A stretch of DNA of 48,429 bases from a bacterium (GCA_046331705.1 JAXLQJ010000054.1:1-48429), one strand, 5' to 3'; positions 37,808 to 48,429 are shown, counted from the stretch's first letter. Program-made: numbers and translations. Notes: generated from the letters alone by a model not told the origin.

Positions 37808-37898
37808 GCCGAACGCAGAGCTCAGCGGCGATCCCGGACTAACACGAGCTCCAGACGAACGCACCCCGGTTACCGGCTGCTGCATCGACGAGTTCGCG
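37808..37898 (-). other. Integron attC site (intact-looking, 91 bp)
   Basis: Minus strand CGCGAAC-TCGTCG-ATGCAGC...GCTGAGCTCTGC-GTTCGGC; its R'' CGCGAAC complements the cassette start GTTCGCG at 38142-38136. Confidence 0.85.
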
Positions 37899-38135: not shown

Positions 38136-38224
38136 CGCGAACACCAAGCTCAGCGGAGCGCCCCGGCCTTGATCAGCCAATCGACCGGGCGCCACGGGTG
38201 CGCGTCCGGTGCCGCGTCTTGGGC
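38136..38224 (-). other. Integron attC site with eroded R''
   Basis: Minus strand GCCCAAG-ACGCGGCACCGGACG...CCGCTGAGCTTGGT-GTTCGCG. Confidence 0.75.
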
Positions 38225-38451
38225 GTCGCCTCGACCGTCCGCCGCGACTCGTGAATTGCGGCGACGATGTCGGTTGGCGACACGTTCAGATCGAGCCCCG
38301 GAACGTCGAGCGGGGACCCACTTCGTTGCTCGGGTCGGAGAACGAAGAGTCGTCCATCACGTCGGCGGATTCTGACAGCACCCTCCCGACCAGCGCGCTC
38401 GAGAAGGGCCGACAACTGCTGTCGGGCTTCCGAATACGTGAACTCTTTCAT
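38173..38451 (-). CDS. Phd/YefM-family antitoxin
   Basis: MKEFTYSEARQQLSALLERA...VRIRRRDG; ATGA-coupled to toxin; C-terminus reads into the attC. Confidence 0.85.
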   Translation of the reverse strand: MKEFTYSEARQQLSALLERAGREGAVRIRRRDGRLFVLRPEQRSGSPLDVPGLDLNVSPTDIVAAIHESRRTVEATPKTRHRTRTRGARSIG

Positions 38452-38846
38452 GGTCGTACCTCGATACACGGCACGCCCGCCGCATGGGCCGTGCGCTTGA
38501 GGCCTCGGTCCAGGGTAAGGAGGGGAGCCTTCTGCGACAGCGCACAGGTGATGAGATAGGCGTCGTACGCGTACATGTCGTGTTCGGCCGCGACCTCCAG
38601 CGCCAGCGCCAAATCCACGTCTAGGAAACGGACTGGAATTGCGCTGTAGGCGGCCACAGCAGCCTGTGCTTGCGCTGCCGTGATCCGACGGCGTCTCAGC
38701 AGCGCGGAAAGCGCGTTCCCGACTTCCCAGTGAACCGACCCCGGAGCCACGAGGTCAGCCCCGTCGGTAGCACGAATCAACGCCGCGCGCTGCGGCTCAC
38801 TCACGACGACCGCTACGAGCGCCGAGGTGTCGGCCACGATGAGCAT
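38448..38846 (-). CDS. vapC: PIN-domain (VapC) toxin
   Basis: IVADTSALVA, WEVGNAL, YAYDAY, LLTLDR acidic tetrad. Confidence 0.9.
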   Translation of the reverse strand: MLIVADTSALVAVVVSEPQRAALIRATDGADLVAPGSVHWEVGNALSALLRRRRITAAQAQAAVAAYSAIPVRFLDVDLALALEVAAEHDMYAYDAYLITCALSQKAPLLTLDRGLKRTAHAAGVPCIEVRP

Positions 38847-38885: not shown

Positions 38886-39026
38886 GCCCGACGTGGCGCT
38901 CGGCCTGGCTCGCTGTGGCCGCTACTCGGGCGCCACCGGCGATGTCGATCCTCGCTCATCGCCTCGCCCGCGCGAGCTATCCCATGCTCACCCGCGGTGA
39001 TCGGCAGGTGCAGCGCGATGTTACGC
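38886..39026 (-). other. attC site containing a 59-nt IS110 transposase fragment
   Basis: Minus strand GCGTAAC-ATCGCG-CTGCACCTG...CAGGCCGAGCGCCAC-GTCGGGC; 38942-39000 matches 44493-44551 at 50/59 nt. Confidence 0.65.
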
Positions 39027-41245: not shown

Positions 41246-41407
41246 TCGGGGAACCGGCCGTTTAGTGGTCCAGATCGTCGGACCGGGCGCCGCGCAGCCA
41301 TGGAGATTGAATAGAAGTCTACGGAGGGTTCTCGGACCCCGTGCCCTTGTCCGTCCTCCGCGCTCGATTGCGGCCAACCACCCAGAATCACGGGATGAGT
41401 TTCCCGA
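41246..41407. repeat. ~160-bp element with imperfect terminal IR; second copy at 45911-45923 + 48351-48429
   Basis: TCGGGGAAC...GTTTCCCGA; shared core GTGGTCCAGATCGTCGGACCGGG...ATGGAGATTGAATAG...GGTTCTCGGACCC. Confidence 0.8.
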
Positions 41408-41857
41408 ACGCTTGAGCGGGGCATCGCGCCCGCCACCGAGGCAGGCCGTAGTGGCGTCGCCAGCTCGCACGAGGGGCTCCTCGGGAGCAGACCGTGGGGC
41501 GGACATGACCGCCGAACGCGGGACGCCCACGAACAGACGACTGGGATCCGCGCGCCGGGTACCACGCCTCAAGCCCTGGTCTGGTCTTGCGGCTGGATGA
41601 GTGGGCTGCAACTCCGATTACCGTCGGCAGACGTGCCCGGATGTCGCGCATCGATTCCGGGGGACACGAGCTCAAGCGAGCTGGCGTGGAGCCTGGACCC
41701 GTTGGCTATGGACAAGGTAGCGGCGCCCGTGGGACCTACCGCGCAGCGGTTAGTTCAACCCAGATGGAATGAGAAGGCTGACCTCCCGATCACGAGATGT
41801 CGTAAACGATTCTCAAGGTTGGATCAACGGGCTCGAAGCCCAAACAGGAGGTCAGCC

Positions 41858-42930
41858 ATGAGCAATTAACCACGAAGTCCTTCGGATCGAGCGCAGGCCG
41901 CCTCGCTTCCGCCCTCACCGCCGGCCTCGACGTCGGCGACCGCCACTCGACGATGTGCTTCATCGACGCCGCCGGCGAAACGGTCGAGCATGCGCGGGTG
42001 CGCACCACTCCGAGGCGCTCGAGGGCATTCGGCCACCGCGCACCGCGCTGCGCATCGCCCTCGAGGTGAGTACCCACTCTCGATGGATCCGTCGGCACGT
42101 GGCTGCTCGTCGAGGCTCGGTCACGAGGTGTTCGTCGCGAATCCACGTCGGGTCCGAGCGATCTACGAGAGCGACACGAAGACCGACAGCTCGGATGCCG
42201 AGATGCTCGCGCGACTCGCGCGGGTCGACCCGAAGCTTTTGTGTCCCGTCCGACATCGCCGCGAGGACCGAGCCCGGGCGCTCGCCGTGGTGCGCAGTCG
42301 CGACGGGCTCGTCCGCGCGCACGCTCTGCTCATCAACCATCCGCGGTGCCATCAAGCCGGTCGGCGGTCGCGTGAAGCACTGTTCGTCCGAGAGCTTCGC
42401 ACGCCAGGCGCCGGAGCAGATTCCCGCGGAGCTGCAGGCGGTGCGCTGGCCCGTCATCGAGCAGATCGGCCACCCTGACCCACGCCCGTCCGAGAAGTTC
42501 GATCGGCAGATCGAGCAGCTCTGAGCAATTCGACGCACAGCGACTGCGGGAGATTCAAGCGTTGGTCCCCGTGACCGCGCTCACCTTCGTTTTGACCGTC
42601 GACGACCCGGCGCGGTTCCAGAACGCCCGCACGATCGGACCTATCTCGGACTTTGCCCCCGGCCGAAAACAAAGCGGCCGGGACGATCCGCAGCTCGGCA
42701 TCATGGCGCTGGGCGGCTCATGCCTGCGCAAGCTCGTCGTCACCTGCGCGCAGCACGCTAGGCCATTCGGCAAAGATGGCGCCTTGCGCCGCTGGGGACT
42801 CCAGCGAGCAGGCAGCAGCGATCGGATCGCCAAGAAGAAAGCGGTCGTTGGCGTCGCCCGGCGACTGACCGTCGTGATGCTGCACCTGTGGGTGAGTGGC
42901 GAAACCTACCGGCCGTTTCCGACGCCCGCG
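41858..42930 (+). pseudogene. Frameshifted IS110 DEDD recombinase
   Basis: Fragments GLDVGDRHS, IALEV, VANPRR...KTDSSDAEMLARLAR, PVTALTFVLTVDDPARF, QSG and KKKAVVGVARRL in different frames. Confidence 0.9.
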
Positions 42931-43089
42931 CCACCCGCGCGACCGCCTTCCCCGGAAAAAGACCGTCGAGAAGAAGGAGGAAGGCGGCATAGCCGACGTC
43001 AGAGAAACGAACACCAGATGGAACCGATGGAGCAACGGAACGCCGCACGGCGCAGGTCGCGCGATCTCGGCGACCAGCACCGGCCGCCT

Positions 43090-43230
43090 CGTCCGGGTGA
43101 CTGCGAGCTGAGCAGGCCCTCCGGGGCAGACCACCAACAGATGGCGGCACCAGGGCGAGTCGGACTCCAACCTGCACCGAGCTCACCGAACGAGCTCGCG
43201 GTACGAATGAGCGTGGCGTCCGGTGGTTCG
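43090..43230 (+). ncRNA. Putative bridge/seekRNA core of element B
   Basis: Two stem-internal loop-hairpin modules sharing GACT...GCA[hairpin]...TGGCG; loop 1 carries GCTGAGC and CAAC (target matches), loop 2 carries GAATGAG (element left-end match). Confidence 0.65.
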
Positions 43231-43541
43231 CCCGCCGCCTTCGATCGTCGGCCCCGCGACGGTCGGCCTTCCCGACTGCTCTTCGAGAAACCGTTCATCT
43301 ACCCGCGAATACAAGGCTCAAGAACGGGCACCGCCGCCTCAACAAGGACGTGAACTTGAAAGGGAGGAGAGCCTTCTCATGGAAAGAGCTCAGCAGCGGC
43401 CCCAGACTACCGCGAGGTCCAGACGAGCGCATCCCGGGTGCCGTCTGCTGCAGCGTCTTGACTCTATGAAGGCCCCCTCCGGAACGTCCCACCCCATGTG
43501 GGACGCTGGTGTTGCCAACAACCCCAACCGGAGGAGACCCA

Positions 43542-44585
43542 ATGCGATTCTACACCGGACAGCATCAGCACTACTGCGGCATCGACCTCCACGCTCGGTC
43601 GATGTACATCTGCGTCCTCGACCAGGCCGGCGAAGTCCGTCTTCACCGCAATTTCCCGACGACACCCGTCGCCTTCCTCGAGGCCGTCGCACCCTTCCGC
43701 GAGGGACTCGTCGTCGGCATCGAGTGCATCTTCACCTGGTACTGGCTCGCCGACCTCTGCGCCGCCGAGAAAATCCCCTTCGTTCTCGGCCACGCCCTCT
43801 ACATGAAGGCGATCCACGGCGGGAAGAGCAAGAACGACAAGATCGATAGCCTCAAGATCGCGACCCTTCTCCGCGGTGGAACGATTGCGCAAGCCTACGT
43901 TTACCCTCCCCAGATGCGAGCGACCCGCGATCTCCTGCGCCGGCGAACCCACCTGGTGCGTCGGCGCGCTGAGCTGATCGCCCACGCGCAGAACACCCAC
44001 CACCAGTACAACCTGCCCGCGCCGGGAGCACGGCTGGCGTACAATTCGAACCACGTCGGCGTCGCCGAAGCCTTCGCCGATCCGACCGTGCGTCGCAGCG
44101 TCGAGGTCGACCTCGAGCTCGCGCGGATTCTCGACAAGCGCATCACCGAGCTCGAGCTCTACCTGGTGCGCCAAGCGAAGGAGCACGACCCGAAGGCCTT
44201 CCACCTGCTGCGCTCGATCCCGGGCGTCGGCAAAGTACTCGCGCTCACCATCGTCTATGAGATCCACACCATCGAGCGCTTTCCAACCGTGCAGGACTTC
44301 GCGTCGTACTGCCGGCTGGTGAAGTGCAGCCGAGAGTCCGCCGGAAAGGTTTACGGTACCGGCGGAGCCAGGATGGGAAACGTCCACCTCAAGTGGGCCT
44401 ACTCGGAGGCAGCGGCGCTCTTTCTGCCCCGCAACCCCGAGGGTCAGCAGCTGCGCGACCGGCTGGCGCGCAAACACGGCAAGGGGAAAGCCATGTCGAT
44501 CCTTGCCCATCGGCTCGGGCGAGCGAGCTATCACATGCTCCGCCGCGGTGAGCCCTTCGATCGGAGGCGCTTTATGAACGGCTGA
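43542..44585 (+). CDS. IS110 DEDD recombinase/transposase (347 aa)
   Basis: GIDLH, GIEC, KNDKID (D-E-D-D), LRSIPGVG, RESAGK (Ser), AHRLGRASYHML; GGAGGAG RBS. Confidence 0.96.
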   Translation: MRFYTGQHQHYCGIDLHARSMYICVLDQAGEVRLHRNFPTTPVAFLEAVAPFREGLVVGIECIFTWYWLADLCAAEKIPFVLGHALYMKAIHGGKSKNDKIDSLKIATLLRGGTIAQAYVYPPQMRATRDLLRRRTHLVRRRAELIAHAQNTHHQYNLPAPGARLAYNSNHVGVAEAFADPTVRRSVEVDLELARILDKRITELELYLVRQAKEHDPKAFHLLRSIPGVGKVLALTIVYEIHTIERFPTVQDFASYCRLVKCSRESAGKVYGTGGARMGNVHLKWAYSEAAALFLPRNPEGQQLRDRLARKHGKGKAMSILAHRLGRASYHMLRRGEPFDRRRFMNG

Positions 44586-44597
44586 CATCATGGGGAG

Positions 44598-44990
44598 GCG
44601 CGGGTGAGCTCCGTGTTGAACTGGGATCCGTCAGGGCCGAGCTCGTCATCGACGTCCAGCGACATCTCCGCCACGAGCGGTACGCGAATGTCATGAGACA
44701 CGTGCCCGGAAAACCGTTCGTTTTGACTAGCCACCCGCGCTTGCCCCGCCCTTCATCGAACCGTACCGAGACTATGGTCTTTCGCTGGCTCTGCTCCTCC
44801 CCGAGCCCGCAACGAACTGGCTTCGAGCCTGACCTTTTGATTGGGACGGGAGAGGACACGAAATGGTTTCTAGGCCGCCGCGTGTGCGATGCGCGGCAAC
44901 CGCCGCGAGGGGGTTGAGCCTCGATAGGTGTTTGGTGCAGCGCCACGTTCGTGGTGCGAGCGCCGTACCTGAAACAAAGTCAGAGTCGCG
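44598..44990 (+). ncRNA. Putative bridge/seekRNA of element A
   Basis: Stems GCGCGGGTG/CACCCGCGC (44598-44740) and TCCTCCCCG/CGGGAGAGGA (44795-44856), each enclosing GAGCYC...GAACTGG...TTTTGAYTRG. Confidence 0.6.
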
Positions 44991-45096
44991 TCAAGCGCCA
45001 GGCCAGGTCTCGAGAGAGGAATTGCGGTGAGAACAAAACCGCTAGGGAGAGGTGTGCGCTTGACGGACGGGGGCCTTATAGGAGTTCGGCTCAGCG

Positions 45097-45579
45097 TCAA
45101 AACCAGCCTTTGTGCGTGAAGCACCCACAGGTTGGGATGAATGCATGTGTCACAACGAATCCACACAGGCACCAAGAAGTCGAGTCGAAGTGATTATCGA
45201 CTGCGACCAATGTCCGATCCTTGAACTCAAGCACTGTCTCTCGATATCCGACAGGTAGTACGAGCGGTACGGGTACGACGACAACGAGTGCGAGAAGGCC
45301 AGCGAACGCCATGTCCTGTTCGTAATACCACCAGACAGTGTGATCGTGGTCCTCGACACGGTCGGGGTCACCCCATAGCGCTCGGACGATTTCTTCTGTG
45401 TAAGGTTCTGGCGGGTCCCGGGGCGGGGTGCTCGACAACCACGACACACGCCCCCGCTCTTCCGCTAGATAGACAAACGAGCCGCGTTGGACGGCATCCC
45501 CGAGGATCCCGCCGCCCATGCATCCGGCGGTGATCTGGACAATTGCCAGGAGCGCGGCTGTGCGGAACCGGCGATTCAT
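45097..45579 (-). CDS. Hypothetical lipoprotein cassette gene (BamE/SmpA-like segment)
   Basis: Lipobox TAGC; EIVRALWGDPD...WWYY; stop 6 nt before R'' GCCGAAC. Confidence 0.75.
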   Translation of the reverse strand: MNRRFRTAALLAIVQITAGCMGGGILGDAVQRGSFVYLAEERGRVSWLSSTPPRDPPEPYTEEIVRALWGDPDRVEDHDHTVWWYYEQDMAFAGLLALVVVVPVPLVLPVGYRETVLEFKDRTLVAVDNHFDSTSWCLCGFVVTHAFIPTCGCFTHKGWF

Positions 45580-45959: not shown

Positions 45960-46763
45960 CTATTTCTTCCCCTTCGCGGATGCGTCACCGCCCATCGGTG
46001 CGCCCGCATTGCGTTTCTTGGCTACCTCGGTCCGATAGCTCGGCACGTCGAATTCGAGGATCGTCGAGTTGTGGACGATCCGGTCGATGGCAGCGACGGT
46101 GGCCATCGGGTTGTGGAAGATCTGGTCCCACTGGCTGAAGACCAGGTTGCTGGTGACGATCAGCGAGCGACGCTCGTAGCGCTCTCCCATCAGGGTGAAG
46201 AGCACGTCGGTGTCCTCGGCGCCCTGGTGGACGTAGCCCAGGTCGTCGAGGATCAGCACGTCGAAGCGGTCGAGCTTCTTGAGCTCGCGCGGCAGACGGA
46301 GCTCGCGCTTCGCGAGCAGAAGCTGCTGCACGAGGCGGTAGGTCGCGGTGAAGAGCACCGCGTGCCCGTGCTCGACGAGCCGGTGGCCCAGCGCTGCCAT
46401 GGCGTGCGTCTTGCCCGTGCCGGGCAGGCCGAACGCGAGCACGTTCTCCCCGCGTTCGACGAAGTCACCCTTCGCGAGATCGTCGAGCTGTTGGCGCAGC
46501 TTCACCGGCAGACGCTGGAGATCGAAGCTCGACCAGGTCTTGCCGATGGGCAGCTTCGATTCGGCACGCAGCCGTTCAACGCGACGTTGGGCGCGGTCGG
46601 TGGCTTCCTGCTCGAGAACGTCGCCCAGGGTGGGCAGCGCGTCGGCATGGCCGGCTCGGGTGAATCGAGGCACGGCCTCGGCGCCCACGGTGGGTAGATG
46701 GAACGAACGGCACAGCACGGCAATGCGGGCGTTGACGTCCACCGCTTCGGCCCTCGGCTTCAT
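45960..46763 (-). CDS. istB: IS21 helper AAA+ ATPase
   Basis: GLPGTGKT, LILDDLGY, RYERRSLIVTSN, AAIDRIVH. Confidence 0.96.
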   Translation of the reverse strand: MKPRAEAVDVNARIAVLCRSFHLPTVGAEAVPRFTRAGHADALPTLGDVLEQEATDRAQRRVERLRAESKLPIGKTWSSFDLQRLPVKLRQQLDDLAKGDFVERGENVLAFGLPGTGKTHAMAALGHRLVEHGHAVLFTATYRLVQQLLLAKRELRLPRELKKLDRFDVLILDDLGYVHQGAEDTDVLFTLMGERYERRSLIVTSNLVFSQWDQIFHNPMATVAAIDRIVHNSTILEFDVPSYRTEVAKKRNAGAPMGGDASAKGKK

Positions 46764-48241
46764 CGCTCACCTCCGACGAGGAACGCGTCGTACACGTGGA
46801 GATCGGGCTCCGGGATCGCAATCTCGGGCACCGAGGGCTTCGGCGGTGCGACTCGCTCTCGGACGTCGGTGTAGGAGAAGGGCTTCCCCTCGGCGAGCAG
46901 CTCCGTCAGCGCTCGCTCGACGCTGCTCTCCATCGTGCTCGCGGCCAGGTGCAGCACCCGCACGTACTCGACGTCGGCGCGTTCGCCGCGGCACGCAACG
47001 AGCGCATCGTAGGTCCGCCGGAAGACCTCGCTCGGGAAGAGCCCTTCGCGATAGCGGTACCGGGCGAACGCACCGGGCTTGCGCACCAACGACCAGATCA
47101 CGTGCCGGTAGTCGATCCGGTACTCCTCCGCGCCGCGCAGGCGTGGCATGCGCTCGACGGGCTGACCGCCGTAGAGAATCTCGACCCAGTCGGGATGCAA
47201 GCGCGCCTCGACCTCGTGACCGATCAGCCGCGACGGGACCGAGTACGTGCGGCCGCCCACTCGAACTGTGCTCCAGCGGTGCACCTGGACGCGGTACGTC
47301 GAGTACGCCGGCACCGGCGATGGCGGAAGCGGGCGTAGATGCGGCCGCTCCTCGGCGAGCCGCGAGTCGAAGCGGCGATTGCGGCGCTCCACGACGGCTT
47401 CGACGAAGGCTTCGTATGCAGCGAGGTCCACGAAATCACGGCTGCCGCGGATCACGAGCGCTTGTCGGAGCGCGTCTTTGAGGCGGCGGTTGGTCTGCTC
47501 GACGACGCCGTTCTCGTTCGACTCACCGGGGCGAATCCGAGTGGACTCGATCCCGTAGTGGTCGAGGACCGAGGCGAAGCGCTCGTTGAGGACGCGTCCA
47601 CCCTCATGCTTCAGGTCGTGGGTCGCCGCCGAGAGATTGTCCGTGCGGGCGACGGCGGTCACCCCACCGAGCCGCCAGAACGCCGCCTGCAGCCCGGCGA
47701 CGAGCGCCTCGAAGGTCTCGCCGAACACGACCTTCGCCCAAGTCCACCCGCTGAAGCTCAGCACCAGCACGAACAGCAGATGGTCGAGAGGCTCGCCGGC
47801 GATCGTCACACCGAGCTCGCGCGCATGCGTGAAGTCGAGCTGCGCCTCGCGTCCCGGCGGGTGTTGCTGGGGGAAGAACACCTCCCGCTCACCGCCGTGC
47901 AGCGCACGCCAATCGCGGAGGCGGCGCTGCAGCGTGCGGAGCTGACCCGCCGGGAACTGGCCCGGGTGACGATCCTCGAGCCAGTCGAAGATCGTGGTGG
48001 CCTGCAACACGCCGGCTTCGTCCGTCTGGAGCAGCGGCACGATCTCGCTCGCCCAGACCGACTCGAATGGATCGGACCGCGTGCGCCACAGGCGTGGCTG
48101 CCGCGCTTCCGAGGGCAACGGTCCCCGCTCCCACTCTCGGGCCGTACGGACACTCATGCCCGCCGCGGCTGCCGCCGCTTCCTGCGTCTTTCCGTCCATG
48201 CGCTTCTGCCTCAGCAGGCGCACCTGGGCATCCGTGACCAT
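46760..48241 (-). CDS. istA: IS21 DDE transposase
   Basis: PGREAQLDFT, RTDNLSAA, ENGVVE, YSVPSRLIG; ATGA overlap with istB. Confidence 0.96.
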   Translation of the reverse strand: MVTDAQVRLLRQKRMDGKTQEAAAAAAGMSVRTAREWERGPLPSEARQPRLWRTRSDPFESVWASEIVPLLQTDEAGVLQATTIFDWLEDRHPGQFPAGQLRTLQRRLRDWRALHGGEREVFFPQQHPPGREAQLDFTHARELGVTIAGEPLDHLLFVLVLSFSGWTWAKVVFGETFEALVAGLQAAFWRLGGVTAVARTDNLSAATHDLKHEGGRVLNERFASVLDHYGIESTRIRPGESNENGVVEQTNRRLKDALRQALVIRGSRDFVDLAAYEAFVEAVVERRNRRFDSRLAEERPHLRPLPPSPVPAYSTYRVQVHRWSTVRVGGRTYSVPSRLIGHEVEARLHPDWVEILYGGQPVERMPRLRGAEEYRIDYRHVIWSLVRKPGAFARYRYREGLFPSEVFRRTYDALVACRGERADVEYVRVLHLAASTMESSVERALTELLAEGKPFSYTDVRERVAPPKPSVPEIAIPEPDLHVYDAFLVGGER

Positions 48242-48429
48242 CGGCTGGGGTCCCTCCCGGACCGCAGCCAACGTCAACCGACCACCTCAGGCGAGACCGG
48301 CAGATCTAATCGTCGTCGACCGGCAGAAGTAATTGTCGCTGATCACCGGCCGTTTGGGTGGTCCAGATCGTCGGACCGGGCACCGCGCAGCTATGGAGAT
48401 TGAATAGGGGTCTGGAGGTTCTCGGACCC

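Follow-up and report, generated by a model that had tools for sequence, protein, structure and literature searches.

The window analysed here is a stretch of 48,429 nt of bacterial DNA. At about 41762-43388 it carries an insertion sequence of the IS1111 type of ~1.63 kb, called element B, which sits in an integron attC site, where it separates the R′ box from the L′ box, and owns the probable RNA gene considered below. The features of the locus, all read on the plus strand, are the following.

41753-41761, plus strand: left flank, with GTTCAAC, an attC R′ box seen in reverse complement (the cassette strand has GTTGAAC)
41757-41761, plus strand: left-target stretch AACCC, read by the intact guide
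41762-41763, plus strand: core dinucleotide AG at the left junction; in relatives AG(A/T)T-type letters stand before the left inverted repeat
41764-41792, plus strand: left end, made up of the terminal extension ATGGA and the left subterminal inverted repeat, which begins with ATGAGAAGGCT
41859-42992, plus strand: transposase pseudogene (DEDD/IS110-family), with a stop at codon 4, several frameshifts compared with the intact gene on contig C2, and two TGA inside the match
43091-43223, plus strand: probable remnant of a bridge RNA (seekRNA) gene, with the target-binding loop first and the donor-binding loop second; the whole-genome search recovered it as well
43095-43104, plus strand: closing stem P1, 5′ strand GGGTG.ACTGC, pairing with 43144-43151 (GCGG CACC)
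43106-43113, plus strand: 5′ guide of loop 1, AGCTGAGC; in the right target, the attC L′ box, it complements the top strand; the core-complementing CT is deleted
43134-43143, plus strand: 3′ guide of loop 1; what is left of AACCC is CCAAC, which runs in the sense of the left flank and precedes AG (core) and ATG (left-end letters)
43166-43177, plus strand: 5′ strand of loop 2, TCCAACCT, then stem P3 GCAC; complement of left-end GATGGA with one mismatch
43201-43213, plus strand: 3′ side of loop 2; GTAC is the broken P3 (GTGC in 44/44 relatives) and GAATG--AGC is the right-end guide AATGGAAG minus 2 nt
43357-43388, plus strand: right end; subterminal inverted repeat to CTCAT at 43380, terminal GGA and a disturbed core region AAGAG (family norm GGA+AG)
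43385-43460, plus strand: attC site of the right flank (nhmmer, E 5.7e-18), with the L′ box GCTCAGC at 43388-43394

Other mobile elements lie beside element B. A second IS110-family element (element A, window 43500-44800) starts about 40 nt past the attC that element B hit at its other end, and its transposase gene of 347 aa is open (43542-44582; PF02371 61.6 bits, PF01548 57 bits). Element A has relatives on contigs C2, C10 and C23 and a relic of its C-terminus at window 38939-39000, and its own non-coding tail does not match the RNA covariance model (R1) described below. An IS21-type pair, IstB (172.7 bits) and an rve/Mu-type transposase, occupies 45963-48277 on the minus strand. A 56-nt direct repeat, 93% identical between 41265-41320 and 48358-48413, may be a further end or relic of this IS21-type element.

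Copies, ends and relatives of the element

A blastn search of the source genome identified three copies of element B: that in the window, one on C2 (94% over 1684 nt) and one on C30 (88%). An open transposase gene (379 aa) is found only in the C2 copy, in which the DEDD (RuvC-like) N-terminal domain and the PF02371 C-terminal domain are both present (PF01548 77.3 bits, PF02371 73.2 bits); the window copy retains a PF02371 fragment alone (26.3 bits). To the right of the intact element at C2:269819-269900 (locus L009), 23 nt of attC are joined to the last ~42 nt of element A, and the C2 locus then continues with the same downstream sequence as window 44755-45440. The attC stub joined to the end of element A and the common downstream sequence indicate that the window and C2 loci are rearranged paralogues.

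The region is bracketed by an inverted repeat (I6) with arms at 41769-41792 and 43357-43380 that are 83% complementary, and outside of the repeats there are terminal extensions, AGATGGA to the left and GGA(AG) to the right. Element B thereby has both marks of IS1111 ends, subterminal inverted repeats of 7-17 bp or more and short terminal extensions. A further IS1111 mark according to PMC11187229 is a C-terminal GL-P----S(T)G motif; the C2 protein reads GLCPRRKQSG, in which G265, P268 and G274 are invariant or nearly so in an alignment of 20 proteins. The distance from the transposase stop to the end of the right repeat is 392 nt in the C2 copy and 208-624 nt in relatives, save L092 with its broken frame. 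The layout of element B, with subterminal repeats, short extensions and a long non-coding tail, is that of the IS1111 type as PMC11187229 describes it.

The C2 transposase has thousands of relatives. An alignment of 20 of them led to the retrieval of 80 loci from many phyla, with transposases 44-57% identical and hosts among Acidobacteriota, Gemmatimonadota, Chloroflexota, Actinomycetota and others. A search within the same phylum (6 genomes) gave one weak match of 31% identity. A simple inverted-repeat finder detected a ATGAGAAGGCC-type subterminal repeat in 59 of the 77 loci that had enough flank; the 18 loci it missed were left out of the end and flank analysis and were still searched with the RNA model. 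AG(A/T)T-type letters precede the left repeat in all 59 loci with a detected repeat, and (G/A)GAAG follows the right repeat in 58, the 59th being cut by a contig end. This conservation around both repeats defines the order of the element as AG-ATGGG-repeat ... repeat-GGA-AG. The AG dinucleotide at both element junctions resembles the CT core of IS621 as given in PMC11208158. The left-end letters CCAGATGG were also considered as part of the target, which was rejected since AGATGG precedes the repeat across the family at unrelated targets.

Of 47 distinct right ends, 38 have a TTGAC(A) that faces outward within 45 nt of the right repeat end; in 31 the motif is placed 16-17 nt before it. The motif agrees with a −35 box to which GAAGAT would be brought near only by the circle junction, as part of a putative junction promoter. 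At this place the window (43352-43357) has TTGAAA, with 3 nt more to the end than in C2.

Multiple copies were also seen among the relatives. Locus L096 (3612-4367), from a relative in Dehalococcoidia, matches the RNA model three times in tandem, at 95.9, 95.9 and 46 bits, and its right ends are repeated too; L094 and L095 each have a second full copy nearby. The guides of L093-L095 aim at a repeated palindromic element of their host, GTTTCAG-AG-CCGCGACCGTAAGGGAGC, which suggests that repeat-hunting is common in this clade.

A probable two-loop RNA gene in the non-coding tail

In every relative a conserved scaffold is found about 60-110 nt after the transposase stop. From 5′ to 3′ it consists of GGGTGACTGCG, a variable stretch, a hairpin, and CCG followed by a second variable stretch and AGAT(T/G)GCAGCACCC; it continues with CCCAACATGCACC, a hairpin, GAGTGCG and AATGGAAGC. 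Covariance model R1, describing a two-loop bridge RNA (seekRNA) of ~143 nt, was built from the RNAs of 43 relatives together with that of the intact C2 copy. R1 matches downstream of the transposase in 80/80 loci of the relatives, about 25 of which are outside the model-building set. In the source genome the model scores 107 bits on C2, 66.1 on C30 and 55.9 on the window (43091-43223, E 6.5e-15, model positions 1-148), and there is a weak partial match at C8:14117-14183 (22.2 bits).

The fold was derived from the alignment of the 44 sequences (A2), in which RNAalifold gave three of the four helices, and the hairpin of loop 1 was added from column counts. Over the 44 RNAs, 92.4% of the cells in the four helices are paired compared to 81.8% after shuffling (0 of 500), and 117 cells are changed on both sides compared to 32 in the shuffled set; 13 of the 22 pairs have such changes. 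Controls with slid helices were 30-50% paired. In helix 1 pairing amounts to 96.2% and 5 pairs have changes in both partners, and stem P3 (GCAC/GUGC) is invariant in 44/44 RNAs. The closing stem of the first module that an earlier note on this DNA had proposed, GGTG.ACTGC with GCGG CACC, is present in the window.

Known RNA families gave no support: the scan of the window with Rfam 15 had 0 matches at the gathering threshold, and on the 3142-base locus around the intact C2 copy Rfam returned only a chance miRNA match (E 0.83). One metatranscriptome contig was placed at 42125-42339, inside the transposase, and none over 43091-43224; contigs of this kind can show neither transcription nor its absence.

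Loop 1 as the probable target loop

The earlier note had read guides in loop 1 from short words shared with the flanks, and all the strings it quoted are where it placed them: GCTGAGC at 43107-43113, CAAC at 43135-43138 and 41756-41759, GCTCAGC at 43388-43394, and GAATGAG at 43205-43211 and 41767-41773. On both strands of the window GCTGAGC/GCTCAGC occurs 16 times, CAAC/GTTG 255 times and GAATGAG/CTCATTC twice, and GCTGAGC is one base from a palindrome, 6 of its 7 letters matching either strand. Taken alone these matches of 4-7 nt are not beyond chance; it is their context that makes the observation real.

This context is provided by the intact C2 copy and the relatives. Of the two variable stretches of the scaffold, the first has the right flank in reverse complement and closes with CT, which is complementary to the core; the second repeats the final 5-6 nt of the left flank and has the core AG behind it. 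The strands of loop 1 in C2 are AGCTGAGCT and AACCCAGATGG; they match core plus right flank, AGCTCAGC, over 8 nt as reverse complement, and the left junction over 11 nt in the same sense.

The relation between guides and flanks was assessed on 43 distinct RNAs, 42 from relatives and that of C2. Leaving out four of the 59 loci, without anchor motifs, and 12 identical duplicates gave 43 RNAs of relatives, and L026, with its right flank cut, was kept out of the permutation. The left guide is identical to its own flank at 4.49 of 6 positions on average compared to 1.52 for the flanks of others, and the right guide has a contiguous match of 5.40 nt to its own flank against 2.12 nt to others. The summed guide/flank score is 425, against 163 ± 11 on permuted flanks, and 0 of 10000 permutations reach 425. 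It must be noted that the relatives are not independent, several loci being copies in one genome, and that identical RNAs were removed while related lineages remain. By the strict contiguous score 16 of the 43 RNAs match the right flank weakly (0-3 contiguous nt); several of these low scores are due to a single mismatch at the core, so that the score undercounts such guides.

The alternative is that the short matches are chance and that the region has no role as RNA, being a non-functional 3′ tail left by a dead insertion sequence. The shortness of the matches, the abundance of their words in the window and the lack of an Rfam family for the stretch would all agree with this. It is contradicted, however, by the conserved structure with its compensatory changes, by the covariation of guides with flanks that no permutation reproduced, by the occurrence of the RNA in 80/80 loci and by a donor guide that is concordant in 44/44 RNAs, and we regard it as practically dismissed.

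The observations instead bear out a two-loop bridge RNA (seekRNA) in the non-coding tail of element B, as the earlier note had proposed, on the grounds of the R1 match, the fold and the guide covariation. They equally bear out its claim that opposite strands of loop 1 read opposite DNA strands across the crossover, since this is what the permutation of guides and flanks over the 43 RNAs tested. Covariation of loop and target in aligned homologues, which it had named as a check, is thus evident, and the loops are not invariant at unrelated targets. Its equation of CAAC with the left flank holds in part: the letters are the same, but in the window they are an out-of-register remnant of AACCC after the loss of CC.

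The letters that follow the core in the 3′ strand of loop 1 also vary with the element end. A T is found there in 5/5 RNAs whose left end has T (three lineages) and in 0/39 others. This suggests that the two letters after the core copy the left end, in which case they would resemble the handshake guides of IS621.

Loop 2 as the probable donor loop

The 3′ strand of loop 2 reads AT[G/A]GAAG and the right end CAT[G/A]GAAG, and the G/A letter agrees in 44/44 RNAs (34 G-G, 10 A-A). The intact motif thereby matches right end plus core, CATGGAAG, in all 44 aligned RNAs. On the 5′ strand the first 3 nt (TCC, CCC, CTC, CTT, CCT, GTC, GCC and others) are the reverse complement of nt 5-7 of the left end in most of the 44. 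This agreement between guides and ends suggests that loop 2, reading both element ends on opposite strands, acts as the donor-binding loop.

The earlier note had also taken GAATGAG in the second module as a guide identical to the left end of the element. This does not hold. GAATGAG is GAATGGAAG after a loss of 2 nt, while the intact AATGGAAG matches the right end, and it is the opposite strand of loop 2 that reads the left end. Since GAATGAG exists only through this deletion from GAATGGAAG, its identity with the left end is coincidental.

The target is an integron attC site

The sequence of ~76 nt in the right flank is one of 21 related imperfect palindromes of ~80 nt in the genome, which in window orientation have the form CGAAC-N5-GCTCAGCAGCGGCC ... 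GCCGTCTGCTGCAGCG-N4-GTTxG. Three integron integrases score above the TIGR02249 cut-off (450.8, 448.7 and 362.7 bits); integrase genes are located at C59:21710-22654, C44:3476-4420 and C23:90368-91282. Arrays of the palindromes adjoin the integrase on C59 and C23, and a single site is found on C44. The arrays right beside integron integrases on C59 and C23 identify the palindromes as attC sites. On both contigs the arrays lie downstream of intI and are co-directional with it, which we take to be the 'inverted integrase' arrangement. A paralogous, uninterrupted attC with the same upstream sequence is present on C23. The 21 sites and the integrases beside the arrays thus confirm the claim of the earlier note that the target is the R′/L′ end of an integron attC.

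Extrahelical bases, an extra T and G/C in one arm, tell the two attC strands apart. By this rule the extra T and G/C in the right arm would make the plus strand of the window the attC bottom strand, with which the gene order relative to intI and the minus-strand cassette genes agree. Seen on the cassette strand, element B has L′ (GCTGAGC) and R′ (GTTGAAC) on its two sides. Between attC-like sites at 37810-37894 and about 38138 there is a minus-strand cassette, 38176-38846, for a toxin with a PIN domain (47.3 bits) and an antitoxin resembling Phd/YefM, whose 27.6 bits fall slightly short of the cut-off.

The intact C2 guides spell AACCC-AG-CTCAGC(T), that is AAC of R′, a short spacer and L′. 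The target so described, AACCC-AG-CTCAGCAGCGG, has a 3-nt spacer, in contrast to the canonical attC of this genome, most sites having 5 nt between AAC and GCTCAGC. The pattern AACCCAGCTCA[GC]C is matched by only three unoccupied sites, of which a single one (C30:15221) belongs to a recognised attC. All three copies of the element are inserted at a fixed place and in a fixed orientation in attC: the left junction AACCC-AG is common to 3/3, and on the right there is a recognised attC in two and the 23-nt attC stub in the third. The exact original target of the window copy is uncertain, because its right junction GGAAAGAG departs from the family rule GGA+AG.

Decay or assembly error in the window copy

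Relative to the C2 RNA of 143 nt the window RNA has 5 substitutions and 7 indel events totalling 11 nt. Lost are the core-complementing CT of the 5′ guide, CC of AACCC, and 4 nt before P3, and P3 itself reads GTAC and not the invariant GTGC. The features of a working member, namely the invariant P3, the core complement, guides in register and the full AATGGAAG, are thereby missing from the window copy as assembled. The 76 full-length R1 matches across the 80 loci score 66.8-119.7 bits, and the window copy with its 55.9 bits is below all of them. The earlier note had suggested a guide preserved despite a dead recombinase; with 5 substitutions, 7 indel events and about half the 107 bits of C2, it is not preserved in the assembly. 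As assembled, without a transposase frame and without key letters of both loops, the window copy is most likely inert, judged from its sequence.

A different explanation of these changes is that the window copy is really intact or nearly so, and that the indels there and in C30 are consensus errors in a repeat, with RNA and transposase both functional. The divergence between copies is dominated by indels (29 substitutions and 40 indel events between C2 and window, 17 and 60 between C2 and C30), a ratio that is unusual for natural decay of the element B copies (window 41760-43387, C30:17299-18829), and several of the indels are in short homopolymers, e.g. CCC to C and CCCC to CCC. An activated-sludge metagenome (X1) contains the left flank of the window, and its sole contig over the element body, of 1666 nt, is of the C2 type; compared to the window this contig has 34 other letters and 58 gaps, and the window version is in no X1 contig. 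Nor does any of the public runs reproduce the window version of the element, and none contains half of the sampled words of the window, the best having 0.44. The indel-dominated divergence, the C2-type contig in X1 and the lack of a run with half of the words are the reasons why the indels could be assembly errors. However, single-copy genes in the window keep long open frames of up to 1277 aa, which argues that the assembly is not noisy in general, and some differences are unrelated to homopolymers, such as a 7-nt insertion at 42094 and a cluster of 4 base substitutions at 42445-42448. Contigs from public runs drop minor variants and so show the presence of the C2 type and not the absence of the window type, and X1 may contain a different strain. 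On balance we consider an intact window copy rather unlikely.

One may also speculate that the mutated window RNA is still made and works, either by serving the C2 transposase in trans or in the role of a decoy or regulator. Stem P1, the 5′ strand of loop 2 and hairpin P4 are intact, R1 still finds it with high significance (E 6.5e-15 at 55.9 bits), and PMC11187229 reports that transposases which have diverged can use one seekRNA. Against this, both strands of loop 1 are out of register with the core, P3, which is GTGC in 44/44 relatives, is broken, and 2 nt are missing from the right-end guide where A2 varies little or not at all. The outward −35-like TTGAAA is also spaced 3 nt further from the end than in C2, and a better RNA for the same target is already supplied by the intact C2 copy. 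We find this reading highly improbable. Use in trans, which the earlier note had envisaged, is not needed, since C2 carries both an intact transposase and an intact RNA.

Proposed working and meaning

From the above we conclude that 43091-43223 is very probably a degenerate bridge RNA (seekRNA) gene of an IS1111-type element inserted in the R′-L′ spacer of a chromosomal integron attC. In the intact form, as in C2 and the 80 relatives, an RNA of ~143 nt encoded about 100 nt downstream of the transposase is predicted to fold into two internal loops. Loop 1 would be the target loop, its 5′ strand complementing the top strand of the core AG plus right flank, and its 3′ strand, in the sense of left flank plus core, pairing with the bottom strand; in this genome it would spell AACCC-AG-CTCAGC. 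Loop 2 would be the donor loop, with a 3′ strand that equals right end plus core (ATGGAAG) and a 5′ strand that complements the left end. What the analysis itself demonstrates is sequence, structure and covariation; by analogy with published work on IS1111 and IS110, the RNA would be produced and bound by the DEDD transposase, and recombination would take place at the AG core via a circular intermediate.

The wider reading is of a phylum-spanning, environmental clade of IS1111 elements, marked by the ATGAGAAGGCC repeat, the AG core and the ~143-nt RNA, that has here been re-aimed at the R′-L′ region of chromosomal attC independently of the clinical IS1111-attC group. An insertion here would part the crossover box of the integrase from the remainder of the attC and lock the adjacent cassette in place, and the 43 guide sets would constitute a ready-made specificity table for a bridge system untried at the bench. 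We hold this wider reading to be about evenly balanced between right and wrong.

The locus illustrates that the logic of target loop and donor loop can be read from raw DNA alone, and that the pitfall is to take a deletion product for a guide. The RNA-guided IS1111 elements gain an environmental clade with defined AG core, ends and guide positions, of which one lineage is at chromosomal attC, and integron biology gains another insertion sequence that may freeze cassettes. For those who build tools there are 43 natural guide/target pairs on one scaffold. The known mechanism is left unchanged.

Comparison with known systems

Natural guides aimed at attC, such as the earlier note had inferred here, are already published: PMC11187229 (Siddiquee et al. 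2024) reports IS1111 seekRNAs directed at attC. In its account seekRNAs bound to the transposases of ISKpn4 and ISPst6 were demonstrated experimentally, both elements target one end of attC, and ISPa25 is a prediction. Element B resembles the attC-targeting IS1111 elements described there in its subterminal repeats, long downstream non-coding region, DEDD transposase and GL-P----SG motif, and like ISKpn4, ISPst6 and ISPa25 it has one end of an integron attC as target (PMC11187229). As in the IS1111 seekRNAs of the same source, the complement of the top strand lies 5′ of the complement of the bottom strand, and the two overlap at the insertion point. The scaffold of ~143 nt is near the 'long seekRNA' of 145-170 nt given in PMC11187229, and its first ~85 nt fall within the short form of 70-100 nt.

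PMC11208160 gives bridge RNAs as predicted in 93.0% of IS1111 elements, within the right end and with loops complementary to target, donor and core, and the RNA of element B is of the same class as the IS1111 bridge RNAs of the covariance models in that paper, which cover IS1111 elements of ISfinder. The clade with the ATGAGAAGGCC repeat and AG core may already be among the IS1111 predictions in PMC11187229 and PMC11208160.

With the bridge RNA of IS621, of the IS110 group (Durrant et al. 2024, PMC11208160; Hiraizumi et al. 2024, PMC11208158), element B shares the two internal loops for target and donor, and the two guides per loop that read opposite strands around a core dinucleotide at both ends. 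It differs from the IS621 described in these papers in that its RNA lies at the right end and not the left, and the guide order is reversed, with the top-strand reader first (PMC11187229, PMC11208158). Unlike that of IS621, the core is AG and not CT, and the subterminal repeats are long, at 11-24 nt.

In host and sequence element B also appears to stand apart from elements of the ISKpn4 type, the host here being an environmental bacterium with chromosomal integrons and not a clinical plasmid. In a comparison with plasmid records all 2048 records that matched the transposase were less than 60% identical, and the 15 best listed were at 32.9-35.5%. The nearest relatives of element B, at 44-57% identity, aim at unrelated sites, and its targeting of attC therefore looks like a separate natural reprogramming.
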